Shown here one piece after another: positions 2,639-62,865 of a stretch of 64,000 bases of DNA. Made by a program: the position numbers and the translations under genes. Numbering within the stretch: the first letter of the stretch is position 1; each line of letters opens with the position of its first letter. The stretch comes from a bacterium (GTDB lineage Bacteria > Patescibacteriota > Microgenomatia > Curtissbacterales > GWA2-41-24), in the NCBI GenBank assembly GCA_021813945.1, contig JAKAJD010000001.1:496412-560411 (forward strand), in the 5' to 3' direction. Under the pieces are notes generated by a model. The model made no database searches and was not told where the DNA came from. It worked only from the letters and a program-made list of their open reading frames with translations.

Positions 2639-4411
2639 TCACTTGATACTTGCAAGCTTCTTATCAATTCTCATTTCACTTTCGCGCCTGGCCAAATCGT
2701 ATTTGTTAAAATCCACAAACTTCAAAACATTAACCAGTGTTGGATGGATTTTGGCTACGGCTTCCACCTTTAAATGTTCAATTCTTCTGTAGTCCGGATG
2801 TCCCTGCGGTCCTGTCCTAAGTTCTGCTTCCCAAGCAAGTTCCCTCAAATTTTCCCACTGGTACCAGCGGATTTTATGCCCCATCATCACAACATACTGG
2901 GCTTGGTCCGGATAACGCTTTTTGATCTTCCTGTAAAACTTATCGATTTTCCCCGCCGCATCAACATACGGCTTTTCTAACTTAGCACTGACCAAATCAG
3001 GCGGCACGTCAAACCCTAATTCCGTAGTAAGCCTTTGGCGCTCTTGTGTCAACATCCTGTGACGGTGAAGATCTCGATAGCAGCCAAAATTGGCAATCAG
3101 GTCGAACTTGTAATATGTGTTTTCGAAAGCCCGGACCAATCTATGCTGACGCACACCCCGCCCGGCAATAGCCTTTTTGACAATTGAAAGCTTTTGGTTT
3201 GGCTTCATTTTCAAAACTGCTTCTTTGATCTGATGATAGGAAAGTGTCGAGTACTTGTATAGAAGGCTTGCAACAATTCTGTCTTCGGCGTCTGCATCCC
3301 ATTCCACAAGTTCGACATCGCCTCCTTCGCTAAGGCCAAACCTTTTTCCAAGTGAATCGAGTGCTAAGGTCTGGCCTTTTTCATTGTTAAGGCCAGGCCT
3401 TAACGCTTGAGTGTCCGAGGTAAGGGCCTGGCCTTTACCTAGGCTTGCTGCCAGATCCTCCAACGCCTTTTCCGTCTTCGCCACATACTTTTGGTAAATC
3501 CTTCCCTTTTCACTTGTTGCCCGCTCCACCATCGAAGGGATTACTTCCATCATTTCCCTTTGCGCTGCTTTTCCAATTTCCCGAATTTCCGAAAGTGGCG
3601 ATGCCAAACACTTGGTAATCACATATTCAAAGGCTTGCCCGACACCAAAAAATCCAACATTGGTCAGCGTACCTGCCGGCAAGTACGCCCGCAAAACATC
3701 GTAGGCTTTGGCATTCATCGTTTCACGATATGCCCGGTCGCTTTGCCCTTCTTCCTGCTTAAACTTTCGCCTTAAATATTTAGAAAGGGGCTCCAAAGAC
3801 TCGGAATAGCGCCGAAAAAGCATATTGGAAAGTCGAAGGTACTCGGCCCCGTAAGAAGATTTCGCCAAATTCGGGTCTACAAAATACTGCCAGCTGCCTA
3901 AAACCTTCGTATCAAAAGCTACATAGCGGGTCGATTTTTCCAGTGGCGCAAAGCCGATCCTGAAATCCTCCAGAGTTTTTGTGGCAATTTGCGAAACACC
4001 TTCCAAAAATAAATGCGCTCCGGCCATCTGCGCTATAGAATCATCGCCATAGGCGGCAAGCCACCTTGCAAAGAAACTTCTAGCCCGTTTACTATTTACA
4101 ACTGCTTCCCAGCCGCCATGTGTGTGCAGGAAATCTACAAAAGCTATAAGTTCCTTCTTCATAACCTCCGCCTCTTTTTGCGATTTAGAATCAACACCCT
4201 CCAAATTGGGTTCCAAAATTGGCTTTATGTACTCATCGAAAAATAGTCGGCGCACTCCTTTTGTGGATCTCGAATATCGGGATGCTAGTGCTCCCAAAAC
4301 TTCACTCGGCAAGTACTTCGCCGCAAAAATGTTTTTGTCTAAATTAGTAAAAAACGGGGAAATATACCAAGCCTCTTCTTTTGTAAATTTTTCAACCGGA
4401 AATTTATTCAT
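2639..4411 (-). CDS. thyX: FAD-dependent thymidylate synthase ThyX-family protein (long, 590 aa) carrying an in-frame repeat insertion
   Basis: ThyX signature RHR...S (FGCYRDLHRHRMLTQERQ) and LGALASRYSRS motif. The length is comparable to long two-domain ThyX proteins. Residues GKGQALTSDTQALRPGLNNEKGQTLA are encoded by the repeat copies at 3331-3435. Confidence 0.7.
   Translation of the reverse strand: MNKFPVEKFTKEEAWYISPFFTNLDKNIFAAKYLPSEVLGALASRYSRSTKGVRRLFFDEYIKPILEPNLEGVDSKSQKEAEVMKKELIAFVDFLHTHGGWEAVVNSKRARSFFARWLAAYGDDSIAQMAGAHLFLEGVSQIATKTLEDFRIGFAPLEKSTRYVAFDTKVLGSWQYFVDPNLAKSSYGAEYLRLSNMLFRRYSESLEPLSKYLRRKFKQEEGQSDRAYRETMNAKAYDVLRAYLPAGTLTNVGFFGVGQAFEYVITKCLASPLSEIREIGKAAQREMMEVIPSMVERATSEKGRIYQKYVAKTEKALEDLAASLGKGQALTSDTQALRPGLNNEKGQTLALDSLGKRFGLSEGGDVELVEWDADAEDRIVASLLYKYSTLSYHQIKEAVLKMKPNQKLSIVKKAIAGRGVRQHRLVRAFENTYYKFDLIANFGCYRDLHRHRMLTQERQRLTTELGFDVPPDLVSAKLEKPYVDAAGKIDKFYRKIKKRYPDQAQYVVMMGHKIRWYQWENLRELAWEAELRTGPQGHPDYRRIEHLKVEAVAKIHPTLVNVLKFVDFNKYDLARRESEMRIDKKLASIK
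3331..3435. repeat. AAGGYCWGRCCTT palindromic repeat cluster (4 units), in-frame inside thyX
   Basis: taaggccaaaccttt (3331-3345), aaggtctggcctt (3366-3378), aaggccaggcctt (3389-3401), aagggcctggcctt (3422-3435). Confidence 0.8.
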
Positions 4412-6791: not shown

Positions 6792-6862
6792 AAGGCCTTT
6801 TTGTCACGCCCCGTGTTAAGGGCAGGTCTTAGGCCAGGCTTACCCTTGTAAGGTCTGCCCTT
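6792..6862. repeat. palindromic repeat hairpin spanning the dcd-topA intergenic region and the last codons of topA
   Basis: gaaggcctttt (6792-6801); aagggcaggtctt (6818-6830) and aaggtctgccctt (6850-6862) form an inverted pair. The topA stop codon (6840-6842) lies inside the element, so the topA C-terminus ...EEKGQTLQG is encoded by it. Confidence 0.8.
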
Positions 6863-8849
6863 TTTCCTCTGGTTTAGAAACTTCCAATTTCGGCTTCGTC
6901 CAGCTTGCAAACTTACATTTTGGCCAATTGCTGCATCCCCAAAAAGTTTTTCCCCGTTTTGTCCTGCGGGTTACCACGTCACCGGTTTTACAATCCGGGC
7001 ATTTCATACCCGTTTCCTCATTTAAAGCTTTTGTGTTTTTACAATCCGGAAAACCCGAACATGCCAAAAACTTTCCAAACCTTCCGTATCTAACCACCAT
7101 TGGCTTTCCGCATTTGTCGCAAATCTCGTCCGTAGTTTCCACTTCGACTTTCATTTTGTCTGCCTCCTCGGCAACCTTTTCGACCTTCGCTTCAAACGGC
7201 CCCCAAAATTTCTTCATGGTTGGCGGCATTTCTGCCTTACCCTGAGCGATACTATCCAAATCGTCCTCCATCTCCGCCGTAAACGAATAATCGAAAATGT
7301 CGGAAAAATATTTCATCAGAAAATCGATCGTTGTTTTTCCAATCGGCGTCGGTGCGATTTTCTTGCCTTCCATTTTTTCTATATATAACCTGTCGTATAA
7401 AGTTGAAATTGTCGGTGCATAAGTAGAAGGCCTGCCAATCCCGTTTTTCTCCAAGTCGCGGATTAGTGTTGCCTCGGTATACCTTGCTGGCGGTTCAGTG
7501 AATTTCTGTTGAGGATTGATATTTTTGAAGTCGAGCGCTTCACCTTTTACCAAAGTTGGCAACACCTGTTCTGTGATCGGTGCCTTTTCGTAAACCTTAT
7601 ACCAACCGTCAAATTTTATCTGCTGACCCGTAGCCCTCAAAAGATATTTTTGAGAGGTGGCACTTGCCTCAACCTCAACCGCCGTTTCATTAACAACCGC
7701 TTCGGCCATTTGGCAAACAACCATCCGCTTCCATATCAGGTCGTAAAGTTTTTTCTCGTCCGGGCTTCCATCTATCGACTGACGGGAAACATTGGTCGGC
7801 CTAATTGCTTCATGCGCTTCCTGTGCCAACCTCGATTTGACCTTGTATGCCCGCGGCTTTTCCGGTAAATAATTCCTCCCGTAATTTTCTTCAATAAACT
7901 TTCTTGTCGCAGAAACGGCTTGAGGCGACAAATTCACGGAATCTGTTCTCATATAAGTAATCAGTCCGTTTTCATAAAGGCTTTGGGCAACACTCATTGT
8001 GCGCTTTGGCACAAACCCCAAAACGTTAGCTGCCCGCTGCTGCAAGGTTGAAGTTGTAAATGGAGGATTCGGATATTTTTTAACTTCTTTCGACTCAACC
8101 GAAGAGACAGAATAGTCGGAAACCTTAAGGTCTGAAACTGCTTGATCCGCTTCCTTTTGATTTTTAACTTCGGCTTTCTTCCCGTTGATCTTGGCAAGCG
8201 TAATTACAAACTGGTCTCTGGCCTCTGGTTGCTGGCGACTAACTTCTACTTCAATCACCCAGTATTCTTCACTCTTGAACGCTTCTATTTCCCGCTCCCT
8301 TTCAACAACCAGACGCAAAGCTACCGATTGCACCCTGCCAGCCGAAAGCTTGCTTTTGACCTTTTTCCACAAAAGCGGCGAGAGCTTGTAACCGACTAAT
8401 CGATCCAGAATTCGCCTTGCCTGTTGGGCCTCCACCAGATTTTGGTCCAAATCCCTTGGATGCGAAAATGCATCCAGTACCGCGTCTTTTGTAATTTCAT
8501 GGAAAACGACACGCTGGTATTTTTGCCTTGCCATTTTTGCTTTGGATTTCTGCTCAATAACCTTAAGCAAATTCCATGCAATAGCTTCCCCTTCCCGGTC
8601 AGGGTCGGTGGCAAGGTATAAATTGGTAACACCCTCTGTAGATTTAACCAGCTGGTTGACCATCTTCATTTTGTTTTTGGGAATTACGTACTTCGGCTCG
8701 AAGTTGTGATCCACATCCACGCCAAATTCGCCTTTTGGCAAATCACGAACGTGCCCCATCGAAGCCAATATTTGATAGTCGCTTCCCAAATACTGGGTAA
8801 GCGTCCTTGCTTTGGTTGGCGACTCAACAATAACTAAATTTTTCGACAT
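6840..8849 (-). CDS. topA: DNA topoisomerase I
   Basis: N-terminal Toprim LVIVESPTKARTLTQYLG...GHVRDLP and C-terminal Cys4 zinc ribbons (CDKCGKPMV...CSGFPDC, CPDC...CSNWPKC). Confidence 0.93.
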   Translation of the reverse strand: MSKNLVIVESPTKARTLTQYLGSDYQILASMGHVRDLPKGEFGVDVDHNFEPKYVIPKNKMKMVNQLVKSTEGVTNLYLATDPDREGEAIAWNLLKVIEQKSKAKMARQKYQRVVFHEITKDAVLDAFSHPRDLDQNLVEAQQARRILDRLVGYKLSPLLWKKVKSKLSAGRVQSVALRLVVEREREIEAFKSEEYWVIEVEVSRQQPEARDQFVITLAKINGKKAEVKNQKEADQAVSDLKVSDYSVSSVESKEVKKYPNPPFTTSTLQQRAANVLGFVPKRTMSVAQSLYENGLITYMRTDSVNLSPQAVSATRKFIEENYGRNYLPEKPRAYKVKSRLAQEAHEAIRPTNVSRQSIDGSPDEKKLYDLIWKRMVVCQMAEAVVNETAVEVEASATSQKYLLRATGQQIKFDGWYKVYEKAPITEQVLPTLVKGEALDFKNINPQQKFTEPPARYTEATLIRDLEKNGIGRPSTYAPTISTLYDRLYIEKMEGKKIAPTPIGKTTIDFLMKYFSDIFDYSFTAEMEDDLDSIAQGKAEMPPTMKKFWGPFEAKVEKVAEEADKMKVEVETTDEICDKCGKPMVVRYGRFGKFLACSGFPDCKNTKALNEETGMKCPDCKTGDVVTRRTKRGKTFWGCSNWPKCKFASWTKPKLEVSKPEEKGQTLQG

Positions 8850-24312: not shown

Positions 24313-24346
24313 GCCTACATGACAAGCCGCTTCCCAATCCCTTAAT

Positions 24347-24380
24347 ACTGGAAACTGGAAACTGGAAACTATAAACTATC
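24347..24380. repeat. tandem heptamer (GGAAACT)x3 immediately upstream of the folD start codon
   Basis: actggaaactggaaactggaaactataaactatc, ending 4 nt before the ATG at 24385. Confidence 0.7.
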
Positions 24381-24384
24381 CCTG

Positions 24385-25380
24385 ATGGCAAAAATCTTAG
24401 ACGGCCGGACTGTGCGCGACAAGATATTAGACAATCTTAAAACGCAGATCGCTAATCTTAAAACGAAACCAAAACTGATTATTATTCAAGTCGGCGACCT
24501 GGATGAAAGCAACACTTATATCGGGCAGAAAATTAAATTCGGCCAGAAAATCGGTGCCATTGCCGAACTTAAAAAATTCCCCGCCGACATTACTCAAAAC
24601 CAGCTGACCTCCCAGCTCCAACAGCTAAATGCTGACCCAACAGTCCACGGCATTATCATCCAGCTGCCAATTTCCCAACATTTGGACAAAGACGAATTGA
24701 TAGAGATGATTGATCCAAAAAAAGACGTTGATGGTCTAACTGCTACAAACGAAGAACTTTTGGAAGAAAACAATCCCGATGCCTTAGTCCCCGCAACCGC
24801 CAAAGGCGTCATCACCATCCTTAACTATTACAAAGTGCCGATTAAAGGCAAAAAAGCAGCAGTTGTCGGCCGATCTAAACTTGTCGGCAAGCCGGTAGCA
24901 ACGCTTCTCAGAAATTTGGGAGCCGAAGTTGAAGTCGGCCACAGCCAAACGCCGAATCTGACAGTTCTTACAAAACCGGCAGACATCATCGTTGTCGCCG
25001 TCGGGAAACCAAACTTAATCACCAAAAACCACGTTTCCCCCGGCCAAACAGTAGTCGATGTAGGTATAAACGTTGTCCAACCGGACAAGGTCAGGCCTTG
25101 GAAAACTGAAAGGCCTGACCTTAAAATCAAAGAAAAAGGCCTGACCTTAGCTAAGCCAGATGACAAGGCCAGGCCTTTTGCCAACGACGGATCTCAGTTA
25201 AGGCCTGGCCTTAACGCAAGCCGAAAACTCGTTGGCGACGTCGCCTTCACCGAAGTCGAACCAATTGTCGCTGCCATTACCCCCGTCCCCGGCGGCATTG
25301 GCCCCATGACCGTCGCCTCCCTCTACGAAAACCTTCTCCTAGCCTACGAATCCCAAAAATTAATTTCTAAAAGGAGCTAA
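24385..25380 (+). CDS. folD: bifunctional methylenetetrahydrofolate dehydrogenase/cyclohydrolase carrying a ~45-aa repeat-encoded insertion
   Basis: LIIIQVGD..S..Y, DVDGL, AVVGRSKLVGKPVATLL, VVDVGIN, ITPVPGGIGPMTVA. Insertion VRPWKTERPDLKIKEKGLTLAKPDDKARPFANDGSQLRPGLNASRKL lies between VDVGINVV and GDVAFTE, where canonical FolD has a short loop. Confidence 0.9.
   Translation: MAKILDGRTVRDKILDNLKTQIANLKTKPKLIIIQVGDLDESNTYIGQKIKFGQKIGAIAELKKFPADITQNQLTSQLQQLNADPTVHGIIIQLPISQHLDKDELIEMIDPKKDVDGLTATNEELLEENNPDALVPATAKGVITILNYYKVPIKGKKAAVVGRSKLVGKPVATLLRNLGAEVEVGHSQTPNLTVLTKPADIIVVAVGKPNLITKNHVSPGQTVVDVGINVVQPDKVRPWKTERPDLKIKEKGLTLAKPDDKARPFANDGSQLRPGLNASRKLVGDVAFTEVEPIVAAITPVPGGIGPMTVASLYENLLLAYESQKLISKRS
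25087..25212. repeat. AAGGYCWGRCCTT palindromic repeat cluster (5 units), in-frame inside folD
   Basis: aaggtcaggcctt (25087-99), aaggcctgacctt (25110-22), aaggcctgacctt (25136-48), aaggccaggcctt (25165-77), aaggcctggcctt (25200-12). Confidence 0.85.
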
Positions 25381-25706: not shown

Positions 25707-26678
25707 GTGAAATATAAACGCGCATTTGCTCCCATCTTAATAATAATTGTCCTTTTTTCAATAAGCCTTGCAGCAGGTGGCATTTATTATTTCAAAATAA
25801 AAAAACCCAACCCAAAACCAAGTGCTTCTCAAACCGTAACCCCTACTCCCACCCCAAACACAAATCAAAATAACAATTCCGTTTCGAACATAGAAGAAAA
25901 CGCTTCCAAAACCGAACCAAACTCCAAAACAAGTAGTCCCTCAACTTCACCGAACCAAACTTCTTCCCAACCAAAAACTTTTGAATCAGGCGACTTTCAA
26001 GTCACAGTTTCCTGCAACGGATATGCTCCGAAAGTTGCCTTCGGGTGGAAAGACGCAACGGACGAAACCGGCTACTATCTGGATATAAATGACGAAGCAT
26101 GGACCGGGCCAAGCACACCTTCCGGATGGGTTTTTGCAAAACTTGCGGCAAACACCACAACCTACACCTGGGACACTTCCAGAAATTTAGACGGCGCGGA
26201 CAACCCCGTACCCCAAAATTCCAAAACCTATTGGTGGCGGCTTAGAATATTTAACGACTCAAAAACGCCGTACCAGAATACAGACGTTTATCCGGGCAGT
26301 TCAAATCCGCCAGGCAATCCTTTCCAAACACCAAACTGCCAGCCAAACGCAAGTTCTTACAACCTCACCGCTTTTCCTCAAGCAGACCTGTCATTAAACG
26401 TCGGCCAAAGCTACGGAGTAAATGCAGTCCTAAAGGACAATCTTGGAAATGTGGTTTTGTATCAGCAAGATTTCGCTTACACTTGGTCGCAGGAAAACTC
26501 AAAAGTTAAAATTGTGACCGACAACGCTTGCACATTCGAAGTCCAACCGCCCTGTCCAAACGCCCACTCACTTTTTATCGGACAGTTTAAAGGTTCCGAA
26601 AAAGTAACAGTCACAGTCAAAAAGAAATCAACCGGTGAAACCGTTGGCTCCACAATATTCAACGTCACCGTAAATTAA
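25707..26678 (+). CDS. membrane-anchored secreted protein with a Ser/Thr/Pro-rich linker and Ig-like beta domains
   Basis: N-terminal TM/signal anchor, low-complexity TPTPTPNTNQNNNS...STSPNQTSSQ linker, then beta-rich domains. Confidence 0.45.
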   Translation: MKYKRAFAPILIIIVLFSISLAAGGIYYFKIKKPNPKPSASQTVTPTPTPNTNQNNNSVSNIEENASKTEPNSKTSSPSTSPNQTSSQPKTFESGDFQVTVSCNGYAPKVAFGWKDATDETGYYLDINDEAWTGPSTPSGWVFAKLAANTTTYTWDTSRNLDGADNPVPQNSKTYWWRLRIFNDSKTPYQNTDVYPGSSNPPGNPFQTPNCQPNASSYNLTAFPQADLSLNVGQSYGVNAVLKDNLGNVVLYQQDFAYTWSQENSKVKIVTDNACTFEVQPPCPNAHSLFIGQFKGSEKVTVTVKKKSTGETVGSTIFNVTVN

Positions 26679-26715: not shown

Positions 26716-28470
26716 ATGTACGCGGATGTTGTCGTATTAACCTACCAAGCACCGGATATCGACTCTTTTACATATGAAATTCCCAAAGGCCTAGACGTAA
26801 AAATCGGCCAACTGGTCGAAGTGCCATTCGGCAATAGACGTCCGACGGGAATAGTTGTGTCTAAAGACGAACGACTAAAGACTAACGCCAAAAATATTAG
26901 GCCCATTTCAAAGATTCTGCTCAACCGACCGATTTTGCTTCCCTATCAAATCGAACTCCTTAAATGGATGGCCAACTACTACCTCGCCCCAATGGTCAAC
27001 TGTCTGGAAGTAATGATGCCGAAAATCCCCAAAAAGTCTCTAGGCGAAAAGGCCAGGCCTTTACGCACGGACTCACCTCAGTTAAGGCCTGGCCTGAACC
27101 TTAACCATCAAGCGCAAAAGGTCAAGCCTTGGAAAACTGAAAGGTCTGACCTTAAGTTTAGCCAATCAATAATCCTCATCCCCTCAATCAACCGCATTCC
27201 GGAAACGTTAGCCAAATTCCCAAAAGCCAAAAATCCCGTCGTCTATCACAACGAACTAAAACCGGCGGAAAAACTTAACGCTTGGCAAAAAATTCTCTCC
27301 AGCGATGCTGATTACATTTTTGGGTCCAGATCCGCCGTTTTCGCTCCTTGCCCAAACCTTTCGGAGATCATAATCTACGACGAGCACGACGGCGCCTACA
27401 AAGACGAGCGCTCACCTTATTTTGACACCTTAACTGTTGCCCAAAAAATCGTAGAGCTCACCCGCGCCGAGCTAAAAATAGTCGACCCTTGTCCAAAAAT
27501 CACTACTTATTTTGGTCTTAAAAACCATATCAAAATGCAAAACTTTCCTCAAGAAACCACCGTAGTGGATATGCAAAACGAAAAGCAAAGCGGCCGCAAG
27601 AGCCCGATAAGCTTTGACCTCGAAGAAAAAATCCAAAATACTATTGACGAAAAAGGTAGTATTTTCCTGTTCTTAAACAAAAAGAAGGAGTCCGGTCACA
27701 TGTTTTGCAAATCTTGCAAGAATTCGCAGTTTCTGCAAAAACAACCGGAAACTTGCCCTGAATGTGCCTCTGCAGATATTTTTTGGAACGTTTTAAATAT
27801 CGACTCGCTTTCCGCCGAAGTTAAAAGACTATTTCCAAAAACGAAGGTTAATGCTATTTCTGGCGTTAGTCGTTCGTCGTTAAACGTTAGTCAAATTACA
27901 ATCGGGACGGCTTACTCCCTCTATGCCCAGCTTTTGAAAAAATACGATCTTGTAGCCCACATCCAAACCGATTCGGTCGCAAATCTTCCCGACTTTAACT
28001 CGCAAGAAAAACTTTACGCGCAAATTACGTCTTTGAAAAAACTTCTCACACCGGGCGGCAAACTATTCTTGCAAACCTACAATGTTGAAAATCGAACTAT
28101 AGAAGCTGCTGCAACCGGGAACTACCAGGCTTTTTTCGAAAGCGAAATATACCAAAAGAAACCTCTTAACTATCCCCCTTTTGGAATGCTTTTTAAGCTA
28201 ACCGCAAAGGGCAAAAACAAAGAAAAAATTCAAAAAGAGGCTCAGAAATTTTACGCGCAGCTGAAATCAAAACTCGATGAAAACATCACAACCCTCGGGC
28301 CTTATGAATCAGTCTTTATGCAAAAAACGCCAAGCTATCATATAATCTGCAAATACAAGCTTAAAAATTTCAGCTTATCGGAAAGAGAAAAGGCTGCCAA
28401 ACACGTAAGACCCCTAATCACCTTGCCCAAAAACTGGCAAGTTACAGTAGAACCTGATTCAATTAACTAA
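26716..28470 (+). CDS. priA: primosomal protein N' (PriA) homologue lacking an obvious Walker A; the repeat insertion sits at that position
   Basis: N-terminal 3'-DNA-binding domain VVVLTYQAPDIDSFTYEIP...VEVPFGNRRPTGIVV. Helicase motifs Ia/Ib/II present (IILIPSINRIPETLA, FGSRSAVFAP, IIYDEHDGAYKDE), then a Cys cluster CKSC...CPEC. No GxGKT; the corresponding position holds the repeat-derived peptide. Confidence 0.7.
   Translation: MYADVVVLTYQAPDIDSFTYEIPKGLDVKIGQLVEVPFGNRRPTGIVVSKDERLKTNAKNIRPISKILLNRPILLPYQIELLKWMANYYLAPMVNCLEVMMPKIPKKSLGEKARPLRTDSPQLRPGLNLNHQAQKVKPWKTERSDLKFSQSIILIPSINRIPETLAKFPKAKNPVVYHNELKPAEKLNAWQKILSSDADYIFGSRSAVFAPCPNLSEIIIYDEHDGAYKDERSPYFDTLTVAQKIVELTRAELKIVDPCPKITTYFGLKNHIKMQNFPQETTVVDMQNEKQSGRKSPISFDLEEKIQNTIDEKGSIFLFLNKKKESGHMFCKSCKNSQFLQKQPETCPECASADIFWNVLNIDSLSAEVKRLFPKTKVNAISGVSRSSLNVSQITIGTAYSLYAQLLKKYDLVAHIQTDSVANLPDFNSQEKLYAQITSLKKLLTPGGKLFLQTYNVENRTIEAAATGNYQAFFESEIYQKKPLNYPPFGMLFKLTAKGKNKEKIQKEAQKFYAQLKSKLDENITTLGPYESVFMQKTPSYHIICKYKLKNFSLSEREKAAKHVRPLITLPKNWQVTVEPDSIN
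27049..27153. repeat. AAGGYCWGRCCTT palindromic repeat cluster (4 units), in-frame inside priA
   Basis: aaggccaggcctt (27049-61), aaggcctggcct (27084-95), aaggtcaagcctt (27118-30), aaggtctgacctt (27141-53). Shares the loop ggaaaactgaaa with the folD copy. Confidence 0.85.
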
Positions 28471-29003
28471 TGGTAAAACCGATTTTGACAATTCCAAAAG
28501 ATGACCAGGCGCTTCGCCAGAAGTCCCAAGAAATAACTGCGTTCGATAAATCTGTCGAAAATCTAATAACCGATCTTATAGACACCATCGAAGCCCAAAC
28601 CGACCCAATCGGCCTTGGCCTTTCCGCCCCGCAAATTGGGGTTTTTAAAAGGGCTTTTGTTGCCAGAATTAGAAATAAGCTGAAAAGTTTTATAAACCCA
28701 AAAATTACAAAATTTTCCAAAAATGAAACCAGTTTTTTGGAAGGCTGCTTCTCCGTCCCGGAACTTTACGGACATGTCATTCGCCCTTCAGAAATTGATA
28801 TCGAATCTCAAGACATGCACGGTAAAAAGGCCGCCGTTCACTACAACGGTGTAGCAGCTAGAATCATCCAGCATGAAGTTGACCACCTAGATGGCGTTTT
28901 GTTTATCGATCATGTCCACACCCAAAACGGCAAAGTTTTTAAGGTAGAAAAAGACAAACGCGGCAAAGAACAATTCGTCGAAGTGCCTCTTCCTCAAAGT
29001 TAA
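28470..29003 (+). CDS. def: peptide deformylase
   Basis: EGCFSVP (EGCLS) and HEVDHLDG (HExxH) motifs. Confidence 0.92.
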   Translation: MVKPILTIPKDDQALRQKSQEITAFDKSVENLITDLIDTIEAQTDPIGLGLSAPQIGVFKRAFVARIRNKLKSFINPKITKFSKNETSFLEGCFSVPELYGHVIRPSEIDIESQDMHGKKAAVHYNGVAARIIQHEVDHLDGVLFIDHVHTQNGKVFKVEKDKRGKEQFVEVPLPQS

Positions 29004-29027: not shown

Positions 29028-29879
29028 ATGGAAAAAAGACTAAAAATCATCTTTTTTGGCAGCAGTAAATATTCTGTTATTGATGCTATCGCGCTTCACA
29101 AATCCTTTGGTCTTGAAACAATCGTTACAAGTCCAGACAAAGCAAAAGGCCGCCATAAAGAATTGGTTCCGGCACCGCCAAAAAAATTCGCAACAGAAAA
29201 CAATATCCCTGTAATAACAGCAGACGAAATAGAAGAAAGCCTTATTACAAAAGTTAAAAACCTAAATCCGGACTTTATTGTTGTTGCCGATTATGGACAC
29301 ATTCTTCCAAATACTTTGTTGAATATCCCAAAATACGAACCTTTAAACATCCATCACTCGCTTCTTCCAAATTACCGAGGACCCACTCCGGCACCTTCTG
29401 CGATTCTTGCCGGCGAAAAAGAAACCGGCCTTACGATTATAAAAATGACAGAGGATGTTGATGCCGGGCCAATTTACGCTCAGGAAATTTACAAATTAAA
29501 ACCAAATGAAACGACAGAAACGTTGTTGACAGAACTAAATACAATCGGTGGTAGACTTGCAGTAAAAGTTATAGAAGAAATTGCATCAGGAAAAAACCAG
29601 CCCAATCCGCAGAATAAACCGACTACAGATTACACACCGAAACTAACTAAACAGTCTGGCAAAATCGATATCGAAAATCCACCAGATCCAAAAACTTTAG
29701 ACCGCATGACTAGGGCATATTATCCTTGGCCTGCTGTCTGGACAAAAGTCGAAGGCAAGATAATCAAATTTCTTCCCGATCGCAAAATCCAGCCCGAAGG
29801 AAAACGGCCAATGAGCCTAAAAGAATTCCAAAACGGTTATCCAAAACTTTCTCAAGTAATTTCGACTTTATTTAACTAA
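29028..29879 (+). CDS. fmt: methionyl-tRNA formyltransferase
   Basis: IIFFGSS N-terminus, NIHHSLLPNYRGPTP (HxSLLPxxRG) and the def-fmt operon context. Confidence 0.9.
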   Translation: MEKRLKIIFFGSSKYSVIDAIALHKSFGLETIVTSPDKAKGRHKELVPAPPKKFATENNIPVITADEIEESLITKVKNLNPDFIVVADYGHILPNTLLNIPKYEPLNIHHSLLPNYRGPTPAPSAILAGEKETGLTIIKMTEDVDAGPIYAQEIYKLKPNETTETLLTELNTIGGRLAVKVIEEIASGKNQPNPQNKPTTDYTPKLTKQSGKIDIENPPDPKTLDRMTRAYYPWPAVWTKVEGKIIKFLPDRKIQPEGKRPMSLKEFQNGYPKLSQVISTLFN

Positions 29880-41187: not shown

Positions 41188-43701
41188 GTGGCAAAACATA
41201 AGCTCCTCAAAACCTGGTCACTGGTTACTGGAAACTGGAAACGTAGAGTCGGTTTCACTCTTATTGAAGTCATGGTCGTTATTGCCATAATCGGGACGCT
41301 GGCCAGCATAAGCACTTTCGCGCTTGGCAAAGCAAGAACTAAAGGGAGCGATTCTAAAAGAAAGGCGGATCTAAAAGCCATCCAAACTGCTGCAGTTGCT
41401 TATTATCAGGACTTCAACCAGTTCCCTCCAGGCACAACACCAGGCAACGTATTTTCTTCGGACACCGGCGCTAACTGGATTCCCGGAATATCAGACTACA
41501 TCAAAAAACTCCCCAAAGACCCGCTCCAATCCGGTATCTTATATTACCTGGCCAATCTTATTAAAAATCCTGTTCAAAATGGCGAAAAATTCTTAGCCGG
41601 ATTATTTTCCAAACCAGCTCAAACAACAAAAACCATACCCCAAGTTGCAGCAGCAACAACAGTAACTTTAAGGCCTAACGGCGTTGGCTCGAGTACTCAG
41701 TGGACTCCGTTAACCGCACCAAATTATTCCCAGGTAAAAGAAGCCACCGCGGACAATGATGCAACTTACGTAAAATCTAATGTTATCAATCAAATGGATC
41801 TCTATAAAATCGACCCAAACTCAATCAGCGGTACTATTACAGGTATTACGGTCAAAGTTGTAACTCGCGCCAACGCAGGCCAAGACCCGATGAGCTATAT
41901 TTACATCCGCACAGGCAGCACCAACTATGCAAGCAGCCCGGGCTTCCAAACCGGCATAGGCGGAACTTACGTGACTTCCAGCTATACCTGGGCAACAAAC
42001 CCTAAAACCGGTGTGGCATGGACGCCTGCAGATATTACCGCTCTTGAGATCGGCATACTAAATAGTTGGACTGAATACCGCTTCTTGACCCAAGAATATG
42101 TGGAGGTAACATACACTCCGACAGGCACGTCTGTAAACATCAATGCAAACACAACAGACAACACCATCAGGTTTTATGCTAGTGGATACTATCCACCCGA
42201 CCCCAGCGGGGGCTGCGATATTGCCCCTCCTGCTGGATCAACCTATTCTCTAACTGGTCAATACTATACCGGCGGCGGTTATTACAAATACAGAAGCTAT
42301 CTCGCCTTTGACACTTCTTCAATCCCAGCTGGCTCAACAATAAACTCGGTAACCTTGACACAAACGGTGTACGTTAAAAGTTTGGGAACTAATTTTAACC
42401 TCCTTGCCTTAAATTATAACTGGGGGCCTACAGTCGACTGCACAAAATGGGGAGGTACACCACCCACAGCCCCACAAGTTGGCAGCATTGCCACAACAAG
42501 CCTTCCTGCCGTAGGATCTTCCTTCACAATGTCCCTGGCAAACTCTGTTGTTAACGCTGGAGGATCAACCTACATGATGCTTCTAAGTGACAGGGACGCA
42601 GCCAACACAATCCCAACAGGGCTGGAAGCCTTTGGCGCATACAGCGCAGAATCGGCCACCCCGCCTCAAATAAGTATCAATTATACGCCGCCAGCCACGC
42701 CGATAGTCACAACAACTGCCGCAACAGGTCTCAGCGGATCTGGCGCAACCTTAAATGGAACTGCAAACCCAAATGGTTCTGCAACAACAGGATGGTTCCG
42801 CTACAGCACCACAAGCCCTGGAACCTGCAATGACACATTCGGCACAAGAGCACCCTCTACTGGAGGCAACGCTCTCGGATCAGGCACAACCGCGGCACCC
42901 TATTCCCAAACAATTGGCAGCCTTACAGCATCAACAACTTATTACTTCTGTGCTCTTGCTTCAAATGCAAGCGGCACAGGTTATGGCACAGTGCTTTCCT
43001 TTACAACTTCTGCCTCAGCACCAGTCGGGACAATTTCCGCAGGGGCCCCAACAATTCCAAGCGGCAGCAGCACATCAATCACCTGGAGTACAACACCTAG
43101 CGGCACGGGGTGCGCCGTTTCCCCGGGTGGAGGAAGCGGGCCCAGCGGCACCTTATCCACCGGGCCACTAACGTCTACAACAACATACACCTTACATTGC
43201 ACCGACGCGGGCTTCATAGATAAAACTGCAACAGTGACAGTCAGCGGCGCTTCTTCTTCTGCCAACATCAAAGCCAATGGATCCGACGGTCCATATTCAG
43301 CAAATGTTGGCGATTCGATAAACATAACCTGGACCTCATCAAATACCACCAGCTGCACAGTAACAGGGGGGCCTGGCGGCTCAGGCACATCCGGTTCATT
43401 TTCGTGGACTGTACCAGGCACTCCGACTCCTCCAACTAGCTACTCCTTCTCACTTTCCTGCACAGGTGGTACTGCCAGCGACAGTGTCACCGTTAATGTA
43501 ACCTCTTTGGGAGTTGCAACCTGTCAAAACAAGAAGAATATTTATTGCTATATAGTCAATACAGACAGAAGTTCGTTTGTTATTTGGGCCCAACTCGACA
43601 ACACATCTGATCCGCAAATTTCTACCAATCCTGGTGCACTTTGCACACTTTCCCCACCGGACCCCAACTTCAACTACTGCGTCGAGTCCTCGTCGCTTTA
43701 G
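41188..43701 (+). CDS. giant type IV pilin-like protein (837 aa): prepilin N-terminus plus large Ser/Thr/Gly-rich beta-repeat C-terminal region
   Basis: RRVGFTLIEVMVVIAIIGTLASI: canonical G|FTLIE prepilin cleavage/methylation motif and pilin alpha-helix. The C-terminal 780 aa is rich in T/S/G with repeated modules (GSGATLNGTANPNGSATTGWFRYSTT...). The two plus/minus ORFs listed inside it are alternate-frame artefacts. Confidence 0.7.
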   Translation: MAKHKLLKTWSLVTGNWKRRVGFTLIEVMVVIAIIGTLASISTFALGKARTKGSDSKRKADLKAIQTAAVAYYQDFNQFPPGTTPGNVFSSDTGANWIPGISDYIKKLPKDPLQSGILYYLANLIKNPVQNGEKFLAGLFSKPAQTTKTIPQVAAATTVTLRPNGVGSSTQWTPLTAPNYSQVKEATADNDATYVKSNVINQMDLYKIDPNSISGTITGITVKVVTRANAGQDPMSYIYIRTGSTNYASSPGFQTGIGGTYVTSSYTWATNPKTGVAWTPADITALEIGILNSWTEYRFLTQEYVEVTYTPTGTSVNINANTTDNTIRFYASGYYPPDPSGGCDIAPPAGSTYSLTGQYYTGGGYYKYRSYLAFDTSSIPAGSTINSVTLTQTVYVKSLGTNFNLLALNYNWGPTVDCTKWGGTPPTAPQVGSIATTSLPAVGSSFTMSLANSVVNAGGSTYMMLLSDRDAANTIPTGLEAFGAYSAESATPPQISINYTPPATPIVTTTAATGLSGSGATLNGTANPNGSATTGWFRYSTTSPGTCNDTFGTRAPSTGGNALGSGTTAAPYSQTIGSLTASTTYYFCALASNASGTGYGTVLSFTTSASAPVGTISAGAPTIPSGSSTSITWSTTPSGTGCAVSPGGGSGPSGTLSTGPLTSTTTYTLHCTDAGFIDKTATVTVSGASSSANIKANGSDGPYSANVGDSINITWTSSNTTSCTVTGGPGGSGTSGSFSWTVPGTPTPPTSYSFSLSCTGGTASDSVTVNVTSLGVATCQNKKNIYCYIVNTDRSSFVIWAQLDNTSDPQISTNPGALCTLSPPDPNFNYCVESSSL

Positions 43702-61675: not shown

Positions 61676-61775
61676 AAGGTCAGGTCTTAGGCTAAGAATA
61701 TCCCAACAAAGGCCTGACCTTTTAGCTCACACTCTTACGAAGGTCTGGCCTTGGAAAACTAAAAGGCCAGACCTT
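61676..61775. repeat. composite palindromic element array flanking the galT 3' side
   Basis: Copy of the 47-bp element (61676-61721), then aaggtctggccttggaaaactaaaaggccagacctt (61740-75) and TTGAGATAAC. Confidence 0.85.
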
Positions 61776-61808: not shown

Positions 61809-62717
61809 TTACCCGTTTAAAATCTTCTCTTCCAAAGTCTCACCAATATCTTCTTCCTTCAAGGCTTCCGCAGCATCAACAGGATCAATAGTATTTACAG
61901 AAAGCCCCGTCCCCAACTCAAATCCGGCCCTGTGCACCAACCTTGGAATTATCCGTATATACCAATCTTTTCCATGGTGGACGTAGTAGTTGTAAGCAGG
62001 CCCGTCTTTAAACGCAACCATGGGCATTCCGGGATGGTAATGCCCCGCTCCCGAAAGATGCTTTATCAGCCGCCTTAAGGCGTTTTGAAGCACGTATGCC
62101 AAATCATCTGCCTCTTCGTCTGTTATTTGGCCAAAAAACTCCCCACGCCGTTTAGGAGCTATCCATAATTCAAAGGGCCATTGCGAGAAATTCGGGCAGA
62201 ACACTACGAAGTTTTTGTTATCCACAACCGTATTGACAACAGCCTCAAGCGGTAGTGTGTCTAAATTGATTTGCTTAGGCACAACCACCAGCTGCGAATG
62301 GGGATGTCTAATAGAAGCCCCTGCAACCTCCCCAACGTTGTTAAAGATAATCGTATGGCCAATATCTTTATTGGCATTAAATCGCTCCCTATAAACCCGC
62401 AAAATAAGCCTTACCTGCTCAAGCGGTAGTTTATCAATATCGAGCTTATCGTCTGGTGAATGGACAATCACTTCATGGAAATCGGTGATCGGAAACTTAT
62501 TTTTTATAACCCTTACCTTCCAGCCTCGCTCATAAGCTTTCCCCTCACCAACTCGATAGATTTCCTCGCCTGGTATGCGCTCAAAACCCGGACAAAAAAC
62601 GCATATCTTATTGACGTTTGCCGACTTTGTCTTGTCTGTATCTACCGGCCTTTTTGTGCGACCCTCGGCAAAGATAACCCAACGGTTGGTAGTTATATCT
62701 GGAACGTACTTCGCCAT
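61809..62717 (-). CDS. galT: galactose-1-phosphate uridylyltransferase (HIT-family, GalT type)
   Basis: CVFCPG (Zn site), FENKG-like NNVGEVAGASIRHPHSQLVVVP (HxHxQ active site), duplicated HIT-like halves. Confidence 0.85.
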   Translation of the reverse strand: MAKYVPDITTNRWVIFAEGRTKRPVDTDKTKSANVNKICVFCPGFERIPGEEIYRVGEGKAYERGWKVRVIKNKFPITDFHEVIVHSPDDKLDIDKLPLEQVRLILRVYRERFNANKDIGHTIIFNNVGEVAGASIRHPHSQLVVVPKQINLDTLPLEAVVNTVVDNKNFVVFCPNFSQWPFELWIAPKRRGEFFGQITDEEADDLAYVLQNALRRLIKHLSGAGHYHPGMPMVAFKDGPAYNYYVHHGKDWYIRIIPRLVHRAGFELGTGLSVNTIDPVDAAEALKEEDIGETLEEKILNG

Positions 62718-62750
62718 AAACTCAGTTTAGCATTTTTACGAAGGTCTGGC

Positions 62751-62865
62751 CTTTGTTGGGATATTCTCAGCCTAAGACCTGACCTTGAGATAGCGGTCGG
62801 TAACTTATCCCACGCAAAGCGCAGGCCTTTTTTCTGACAAAAGACTGAGGTCAAGGCCTGTCCTG
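62751..62865. repeat. composite palindromic element array flanking the galT 5' side (inverted relative to 61676-61775)
   Basis: ttacgaaggtctggcctttgttgggatattctcagcctaagacctgaccttgagatagc is the reverse complement of the 47-bp element; further units at 62819-35 and 62848-65. Confidence 0.85.

Follow-up and report, generated by a model that had tools for sequence, protein, structure and literature searches.

The priA gene located in a 64,000-nt stretch of DNA (the window; GenBank assembly GCA_021813945.1, contig JAKAJD010000001.1, forward strand, positions 496,412–560,411; all coordinates below are window positions) is likely the resident priA of a Candidatus Curtissbacteria genome and a member of a lineage-wide family of PriA pseudohelicases, and the hairpin repeats translated within it are likely passengers unrelated to the loss of its P-loop. 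PriA is a near-universal bacterial gatekeeper of replication restart. A preliminary description of this gene had recognized a PriA homolog with the 3'-DNA-binding domain (3'BD), helicase motifs Ia and Ib, a DEHD motif, and a CxxC...CxxC cluster, and Pfam searches and profile alignment confirmed this assignment. The absence of Walker A and motif VI, also reported there, was found again with a profile of 59 PriA proteins, in all 120 homologs, and in phmmer alignments to PDB chains. The description was correct but incomplete, since the protein has also lost its winged helix and half of its cysteine-rich region (CRR). The features of the gene and its surroundings were as follows.

25078–25215, + strand: sister copies of both hairpin units, in frame in folD (24385–25380), residues 235–276
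26716–28470, + strand: priA open reading frame (ORF), probable pseudohelicase, 584 aa, Candidatus Curtissbacteria type (Patescibacteria; candidate phyla radiation, CPR)
26761–27021, + strand: PriA 3'BD, residues 16–102 (PF17764, E 2.5e-24), highly conserved across the family
27046–27103, + strand: repeat hairpin unit 1, arms 27049–27061 AAGGCCAGGCCTT and 27084–27096 AAGGCCTGGCCTG, encoding KARPLRTDSPQLRPGL; families D1 and D7
27049–27150, + strand: hypervariable linker predicted to be disordered, residues 112–145, in place of the winged helix, strand 1, P-loop, and helix 1
27109–27155, + strand: repeat hairpin unit 2, arms 27118–27130 AAGGTCAAGCCTT and 27141–27153 AAGGTCTGACCTT, encoding KVKPWKTERSDL; family D8
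27160–27213, + strand: motif Ia region SQSIILIPSINRIPETLAKF, first strand of the truncated RecA lobe 1, aligned to kqaivLVPEisLtpqt
27379–27429, + strand: motif II DEHD (residues 222–225) and the equivalent of the aromatic-rich loop, GAYKDERSPYFDT, the most conserved stretch of the family
27706–27765, + strand: reduced CRR, one CxxC-x12-CxxC (C331, C334, C347, C350) versus four CxxC canonically
27856–27894, + strand: second variable loop, residues ~381–393, GVSRSSLNVSQ, GTTAGTCGTTCGTC-type DNA, with a dip in model confidence and low conservation
28021–28044, + strand: degenerate motif VI position, QITSLKKL in place of QxxGRxGR
28177–28365, + strand: PriA C-terminal domain, residues 488–550 (PF18074, 27.6 bits versus a cutoff of 26.9), aligned to the canonical profile
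28470–29003, + strand: def (peptide deformylase), directly 3' of priA; ORF call
29028–29879, + strand: fmt (methionyl-tRNA formyltransferase), 3' of def; ORF call

Loss and retention of helicase motifs

The canonical profile, a hidden Markov model (HMM) of 716 nodes with Walker A at node 217, was built from 59 PriA proteins, all of which contained both GxxGxGKT and QxxGRxGR. The window protein aligned to it in three blocks.

Residues 1–112: nodes 4–115
Residues 149–335: nodes 239–436
Residues 328–583: nodes 456–715

Nodes 116–238 (123 positions), comprising the winged helix, the "LTeeQ" stretch, strand 1, GvTGSGKTevY, and helix 1, were unmatched and are replaced by 36 residues; nodes 437–455, corresponding to the second CxxC pair, were also unmatched. 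Similarly, phmmer aligned residues 13–116 and 149–334 to residues 27–130 and 261–454 of Klebsiella pneumoniae PriA, so that about 130 residues of the latter are replaced by 32. Walker A (GxxGxGKT) was missing in both the profile and the structure-database alignments. Motif III reads VDPCPK instead of GsATPs, motif V reads GTAYSLYA instead of GTQmiakg, and motif VI reads ITSLKKLL instead of QvaGRaGR. Motif Ib was retained, and the DEHD sequence aligned with the canonical DEEH.

These features are shared by the family. Among the 120 closest homologs (43%–70% identity, aligned with MAFFT), neither GxxGxGK[ST] nor QxxGRxGR was found in any, DEH[DENS] was present in 97, and all contained exactly two CxxC motifs, with the cysteines equivalent to C331, C334, C347, and C350 being invariant. 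A P-loop elsewhere in the protein was also considered: the loose pattern [AG]x4GK[ST] gave four chance matches that were not conserved in close relatives, two in the hypervariable linker (ANSSSGKT in P0017 and ATGLLGKS in P0046) and two near residue 290. Not every PriA has a winged helix separating the 3'BD from the helicase core, since it is likewise missing in PriAs of about 650 aa with canonical motifs, such as P0135 and P0142.

All NCBIfam priA models matched the window protein, but with scores well below their cutoffs. TIGR00595 gave 198.9 bits versus a cutoff of 230.35, its best stretch aligning residues 149–336 to profile positions 26–224 with the start of the profile skipped, and NF004066 gave 268.3 bits versus a cutoff of 813. 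Assemblies from NCBI, Logan, and ENA contained an identical protein on 10 contigs, including one of 975,962 bp, and the ORF is therefore not an assembly artifact. The named homologs belonged to Candidatus Curtissbacteria, while some database copies were labeled "hypothetical protein." The priA-def-fmt gene order also occurs in the closest relative (the same neighboring Pfam families in loci L001 and L029).

Fold and conservation

The AlphaFold2 model, based on an alignment of 117 sequences, had a mean predicted local distance difference test (pLDDT) score of 88.3 and a predicted template modeling score of 0.88. The only long low-confidence segment (pLDDT < 50) comprised residues 112–145, that is, the repeat-encoded peptide, and no secondary structure was predicted between the helix at residues 106–110 and the strand at residues 150–154, the latter lying within the motif Ia region. 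The top nine Foldseek matches were all PriA proteins (E values down to 5e-35, TM scores of 0.65–0.77); the best was PriA 8fak_H (TM 0.77), and 6dcr_A, the winged-helix deletion variant of Escherichia coli PriA, gave a TM score of 0.73.

Invariant or near-invariant blocks were located at residues 5–11, 34–37, and 92–95 of the 3'BD and at residues 203–209, 221–241, and 319–323. The most conserved block, YDEHDGAYKDERSPYFDT, corresponds to motif II and the equivalent of the aromatic-rich loop, and the conservation minimum among 117 family members fell on residues 115–145. Since the ORFs are intact, the cysteines invariant, and the blocks strongly conserved, the gene is clearly maintained; the ORF folds and is under purifying selection.

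The DNA of the second variable loop resembles that of some linkers: the linkers of loci L018 and L011 matched positions 27862–27894, and the same type of peptide and sequence occurred in the linkers of several of the homologs. A weak inverted repeat was observed within priA between positions 26870–26896, in the 3'BD, and 27855–27881 (24/27, E 0.002).

Order of the deletion and the insertions

The stretch between the 3'BD and motif Ia was hypervariable in the 120 homologs, ranging from 16 to 95 residues with a median of 27, and never contained a P-loop; in P0008, the two are joined by about 15 unrelated residues. The scan of genomic loci, with one genome per GTDB species and a narrow alignment reaching only Curtissbacteria-type genes, yielded 26 loci, nearly all labeled Curtissbacteria, of which 22 contained a full-length relative. 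None of these 22 had a P-loop, and the linker repeat of the window type was present in only two of them (L003 and L009). Several records with clearly Curtissbacteria-like priA, folD, and repeats (L004–L006, L009–L011, L015, and L020) were titled "uncultured Gammaproteobacteria bacterium," and L019 was titled Saccharimonadales; metagenome-assembled genomes with such titles are probably mislabeled bins.

At the DNA level, a 68%-identical ortholog carried hairpin 1 at the same site and lacked 54 nt including hairpin 2. The P-loop-less relatives and this ortholog with hairpin 1 alone thus indicate the order of events, in which the winged helix and P-loop were deleted first, hairpin 1 followed, and hairpin 2 came last. 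The occurrence of hairpin 1 in the closest relative was not mentioned in the preliminary description.

In the ancestor of the family, deletion would have removed the winged helix, the part of RecA lobe 1 made up of its first strand, P-loop, and first helix, and one zinc-binding CxxC pair out of two, and motifs III, V, and VI would have disappeared by substitution. What remained of both RecA-like lobes, with DEHD and the loop following motif II that contacts DNA, would have been kept, as would the domain that binds 3' ends, a single zinc finger, and the C-terminal domain. The deletion probably left the 3'BD joined to the core by a tether that was short, unconstrained, and disordered, in which dispersed palindromic hairpins would later have landed in frame, unit 1 at the site shared with the closest relative and unit 2 in this lineage only. 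The repeats would then be passengers that added about 35 disordered residues and played no part in the loss of the P-loop.

The hairpin repeat family

The peptide reported in the preliminary description to occupy the position of the P-loop is indeed encoded by repeats: 27046–27103 and 27109–27155 belong to families D1, D7, and D8. Both units in priA are translated in frame, and together they form two predicted hairpins with a folding energy of −46.7 kcal/mol (z = −3.68). The repeats of the window comprise direct families D1 and D4–D8 as well as inverted pairs, with units of about 45–58 nt that are often stacked in tandem. Their 13-nt arms fit the pattern AAGGNCWGNCCTT, and the 13-mer AAGGNCNGNCCTT (with at most one mismatch) occurs in 46 copies in 64 kb versus 1.45 in shuffled sequences. 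Arm pairs of different copies show compensatory differences (GGGCAGGCC/GGCCTGCCC, GGTCAGGCC/GGCCTGACC, and GGTCTGGCC/GGCCAGACC). The majority of copies are intergenic and located just past gene ends; the priA copies are slightly degenerate relative to the intergenic ones.

In-frame repeats also occur in other housekeeping genes, which were not covered by the preliminary description. Unit 2 is 89% identical to positions 25078–25124 in folD (direct-repeat family D8). The repeat insert in FolD (25087–25212) comprises about 42 residues (KVRPWKTERPDL...KARPFANDGSQLRPGL) and splits the match to the NAD(P)-binding domain PF02882, and the recurring peptides KARP...LRPGL and KV[RK]PWKTER[PS]DL are common to PriA and FolD. 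Three further genes on the minus strand were observed to contain repeats. The gene at 2639–4411 encodes a 590-aa protein with a C-terminal ThyX (Thy1) domain, and two in-frame hairpin units at 3332–3435 correspond to residues 326–360, just before ThyX; the N-terminal 325 residues had no Pfam match. In rpsB (700–1566), the repeat at 749–797 encodes the C-terminal tail of ribosomal protein S2 (KGQALTQAGSQEKDLTL...). In topA (6840–8849), the repeat at 6818–6862 spans the stop region and supplies the final codons of topoisomerase I (KGQTLQG*).

No transposase adjoined the repeat clusters examined, the nine flanking ORFs being ordinary metabolic or envelope genes, and no transposase of the REP-associated tyrosine transposase (RAYT) type was found in a search limited to the window. 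Rfam gave nothing relevant at the priA hairpins; both terminator-like sites lay off the repeat, which had no terminator-like tail.

The linker as a probable landing site

The insertion sites in PriA and FolD fit the protein fold, with low pLDDT at residues 112–145 of PriA and confident prediction in the rest of that model; the FolD site is a surface loop of variable length. Across the same Curtissbacteria genomes, the FolD loop ranges from 2 to about 60 residues and likewise contains repeat-type peptides. In other species, the linker DNA consists of other types of palindromic or tandem repeats, such as GTTCATGG, GCGTTCAGC, GTTAGTCGTTCG, CCAGTTT, and long GC-rich stems, and these sequences recur elsewhere in their loci or in the window. 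Of 23 linkers, 13 fold with z ≤ −2.5, versus 2 of 92 control segments. Because the FolD loop behaves in the same way and the linker sequences recur elsewhere, repeat insertion is a property of these genomes and their tolerant loops, and is confined neither to PriA nor to the place once held by the P-loop.

Distribution in Patescibacteria

A search with HMMER covered 1.84 billion cluster representatives exhaustively, and the 150 best matches were examined. About 80 of them lacked both Walker A and motif VI. Three states of the protein were distinguished, the taxonomy of state B resting on few source names (Nealsonbacteria and "Patescibacteria group").

State A, Curtissbacteria type: P-loop segment and half of the CRR deleted, DEHD mostly kept
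State B, "Patescibacteria group" and Candidatus Nealsonbacteria: motifs I, II, and VI lost by substitution, P-loop segment and all four CxxC still present
State C, some Patescibacteria, for example P0413: canonical motifs, no winged helix, about 650–680 aa

A full-text search of open-access papers and preprints revealed no report of PriA pseudohelicases in CPR/Patescibacteria. A broader interpretation is that the loss of helicase chemistry in PriA is recurrent in Patescibacteria in at least two forms, by substitution only in the Nealsonbacteria type and by deletion of the winged helix, P-loop, and one zinc finger in Curtissbacteria, and that the tether, like loops in other core proteins, is a preferred landing pad with maintained hairpin DNA or mRNA. 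This combination appears rather unlikely. If it were true, these ultra-small bacteria would rely for replication restart on a natural "minimal PriA" with a purely structural role, and the tether hairpin could act, for example, by making translation pause between domains or by serving as the recombination substrate behind the deletion.

Comparison with known proteins and repeats

With canonical PriA of E. coli and K. pneumoniae (PDB 4NL4, 8FAK, and 6DGD, and the winged-helix deletion variant 6DCR), the window protein shares the 3'BD, two RecA-like lobes, motifs Ia and Ib, DExH, the loop after motif II, the zinc-binding insertion, and the S10-like C-terminal domain, with TM scores of 0.73–0.77 and def and fmt as neighbors. 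The aromatic-rich loop (ARL) that follows motif II in E. coli PriA contacts DNA (PMC5175346). Unlike canonical PriA, the window protein has no winged helix, strand 1, Walker A, helix 1, or motif VI arginines, its motifs III and V are degenerate, and it has one zinc finger instead of two.

According to the literature, Deinococcus-Thermus is the only bacterial group in which the helicase motifs of PriA are not conserved (PMC4504706, PMC5778457). PriA of Deinococcus radiodurans, a naturally occurring pseudohelicase, has retained the ability to bind DNA and DnaB (Lopper et al. 2015, PMC4504706). Both this protein and the window protein are natural, lineage-wide PriAs without the residues for ATP hydrolysis, in which fork binding and helicase loading are presumably kept. 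However, in Deinococcus-Thermus PriA, the P-loop segment is present with the GKT lysine replaced by arginine and the Walker B motif is poor, whereas in the window PriA, the segment is deleted and DEHD is kept. The window protein, from a different phylum, also lacks the winged helix and half of the CRR. The PriA of the Nealsonbacteria type is a closer analog of the Deinococcus state than the Curtissbacteria type.

The E. coli priA300 mutant (K230R) has no ATPase or helicase activity and yet assembles primosomes and supports most restart, although it cannot serve the PriA-PriC route or Mu transposition (PMC5778457). The fact that priA300 is still functional provides a functional rationale for a PriA pseudohelicase. 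The K230R, K230A, and K230D variants are laboratory point mutants with an intact fold, whereas the window protein is a natural truncation.

The repeats resemble two known types of elements. Rickettsia palindromic elements (RPEs) are similar to miniature inverted-repeat transposable elements and are found in frame in housekeeping genes (PMC10969869). Like the window units, they are dispersed palindromic repeats located both between genes and in frame in unrelated essential genes, where they are translated at sites compatible with the fold. However, RPEs are about 100–150 bp long and occur in a different phylum, whereas the window units are single hairpins of about 45–58 nt with 13-nt arms; the likeness is an analogy of behavior. 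Repetitive extragenic palindromes (REPs) and bacterial interspersed mosaic elements share with the window repeats short imperfect palindromes mostly just downstream of genes, pairs of alternating orientation, and compensatory stem changes, but REPs are extragenic by definition, whereas several window copies are coding.

Proposed function and alternative explanations

The window PriA is predicted to lack ATPase and helicase activity, as motifs I, III, V, and VI are missing or degenerate. The missing motifs, the preserved fold and DNA-binding elements, and the known helicase-independent roles of PriA point to an ATP-independent scaffold for fork recognition and helicase loading, in agreement with the non-helicase PriA scaffold suggested in the preliminary description. 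Such a protein would recognize abandoned forks and serve as a platform for reloading the replicative helicase, the mode of action ascribed to E. coli PriA K230R and Deinococcus PriA. Binding to forks or single-stranded DNA and interaction with DnaB are presumed from the conserved 3'BD, the loop after motif II, and the C-terminal domain.

It is extremely improbable that the repeat insertion itself destroyed or overwrote the P-loop. The repeat peptide does lie about 20–30 residues upstream of motif Ia, where GxGKT is located in canonical PriAs without a winged helix, but the P-loop segment is gone in all 120 homologs and all 22 full-length loci, most of them without the window repeat and some with linkers of about 15 residues. 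Moreover, motifs III, V, and VI and half of the CRR, all far from the insertion, are also gone, and hairpin 2 is younger than the split from the 68%-identical relative, which had already lost the P-loop. Of the two scenarios offered in the preliminary description, the one in which the ATPase was already degenerate and the insertion was tolerated therefore stands, while overwriting is not supported, nor is a meaning of the positional coincidence highlighted there, since relatives lack the P-loop without any repeat. Scores below the NCBIfam cutoffs and copies named "hypothetical protein" would be expected for a decaying pseudogene or an assembly or annotation artifact, but there is hardly any chance of this, considering the intact ORF of similar length in more than 100 genomes, the invariant cysteines and conserved blocks, the confident AlphaFold2 model, the identical protein on 10 independent contigs, and the conserved synteny with def and fmt.

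The protein could also be a neofunctionalized DNA-binding paralog acting outside restart, with the genome being served by a canonical PriA or another route (PriC-like or DnaA-dependent). The ATPase, the winged helix domain, and half of the CRR, the region that mediates partner contacts in E. coli, are gone, as such a paralog would allow. On the other side, the priA-def-fmt arrangement is shared with the closest relative, the genome is only about 1 Mb in size, and tblastn with the window protein and three canonical PriAs detected no second priA or other PriA-like sequence in the 64-kb window, the search covering only this part of a genome of about 976 kb. No canonical PriA labeled Curtissbacteria was present among the matches to a canonical CPR PriA, a weak test because organism names are sparse. 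Overall, neofunctionalization seems unlikely. Slightly less probable still is selection for the linker hairpin itself as a structure of priA mRNA or DNA, that is, an inter-domain translational pause, a cis-regulatory element, or a recombination hot spot. It is favored by the folding of linkers far better than their shuffles (z ≤ −2.5) in 13 of 23 cases, versus 2 of 92 control segments of the same length from the same genes, and by the compensatory arm pairs AAGGGCAGGCCTT/AAGGCCTGCCCTT, AAGGTCAGGCCTT/AAGGCCTGACCTT, and AAGGTCTGGCCTT/AAGGCCAGACCTT. However, the other 10 linkers have no such fold (for example, L008, L017, L020, and L021), the same sequences are dispersed elsewhere in the genomes, and the FolD loop is alike, so the effect is not specific to priA; the lack of an Rfam match and of a terminator-like tail and the slight degeneracy of the priA copies also argue against it. 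Several of these points nevertheless weigh against a resident pseudohelicase carrying passenger repeats. In addition to the excess of folding linkers and the restriction of the second-priA search to the window, hairpin 1 of the ortholog is as similar to the window folD copy (85.7% over 49 nt) as to the window priA copy (about 80%), and the hairpin 1 shared with the ortholog may have been inherited or re-inserted or converted. The DEHD sequence (Walker B) is near-invariant in a family without Walker A, where it may have a structural role or be part of the DNA-binding loop helix, and the predicted loss of ATPase activity is itself drawn from sequence.

Implications

If the resident pseudohelicase is accepted as the likely explanation, a whole CPR lineage retains a PriA that has physically lost its ATP site, its winged helix, and one of its zinc fingers, and in a second CPR group substitutions have eliminated the motifs. 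These proteins form a natural deletion series that reveals with which parts of PriA evolution does not dispense, namely the 3'BD, the loop after motif II that touches DNA, a single zinc finger, and the C-terminal domain. They could guide experiments on restart without helicase activity and on the minimal replisomes of reduced genomes. Hairpin repeats inserted in frame represent a CPR counterpart of the Rickettsia palindromic elements. For annotation, caution is needed with such genes, which score below family cutoffs and are sometimes named "hypothetical."

Neighboring gene and other repeats

The gene located upstream of priA (25707–26678, + strand) encodes a 323-aa protein with an N-terminal membrane anchor and a long low-complexity stretch rich in Pro, Thr, Ser, and Asn; it had no Pfam match and was not found at the equivalent position in the closest relative (L001). 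A 46-nt inverted pair of the same hairpin family (61676–61721 and 62741–62786, 96% complementary, spacing of 1,019 nt) flanks a GalT/HIT-like gene (61809–62717, − strand) in a layout like that of a composite element, with no transposase present. Tandem heptamers (ACTGGAA)n were found at 24329–24369, just upstream of folD, and at 41202–41242, in the first codons of a type-IV-pilin-like gene of 837 aa starting at 41188. The reverse complement of (ACTGGAA)n forms the PriA linker of another Curtissbacteria genome (L012).

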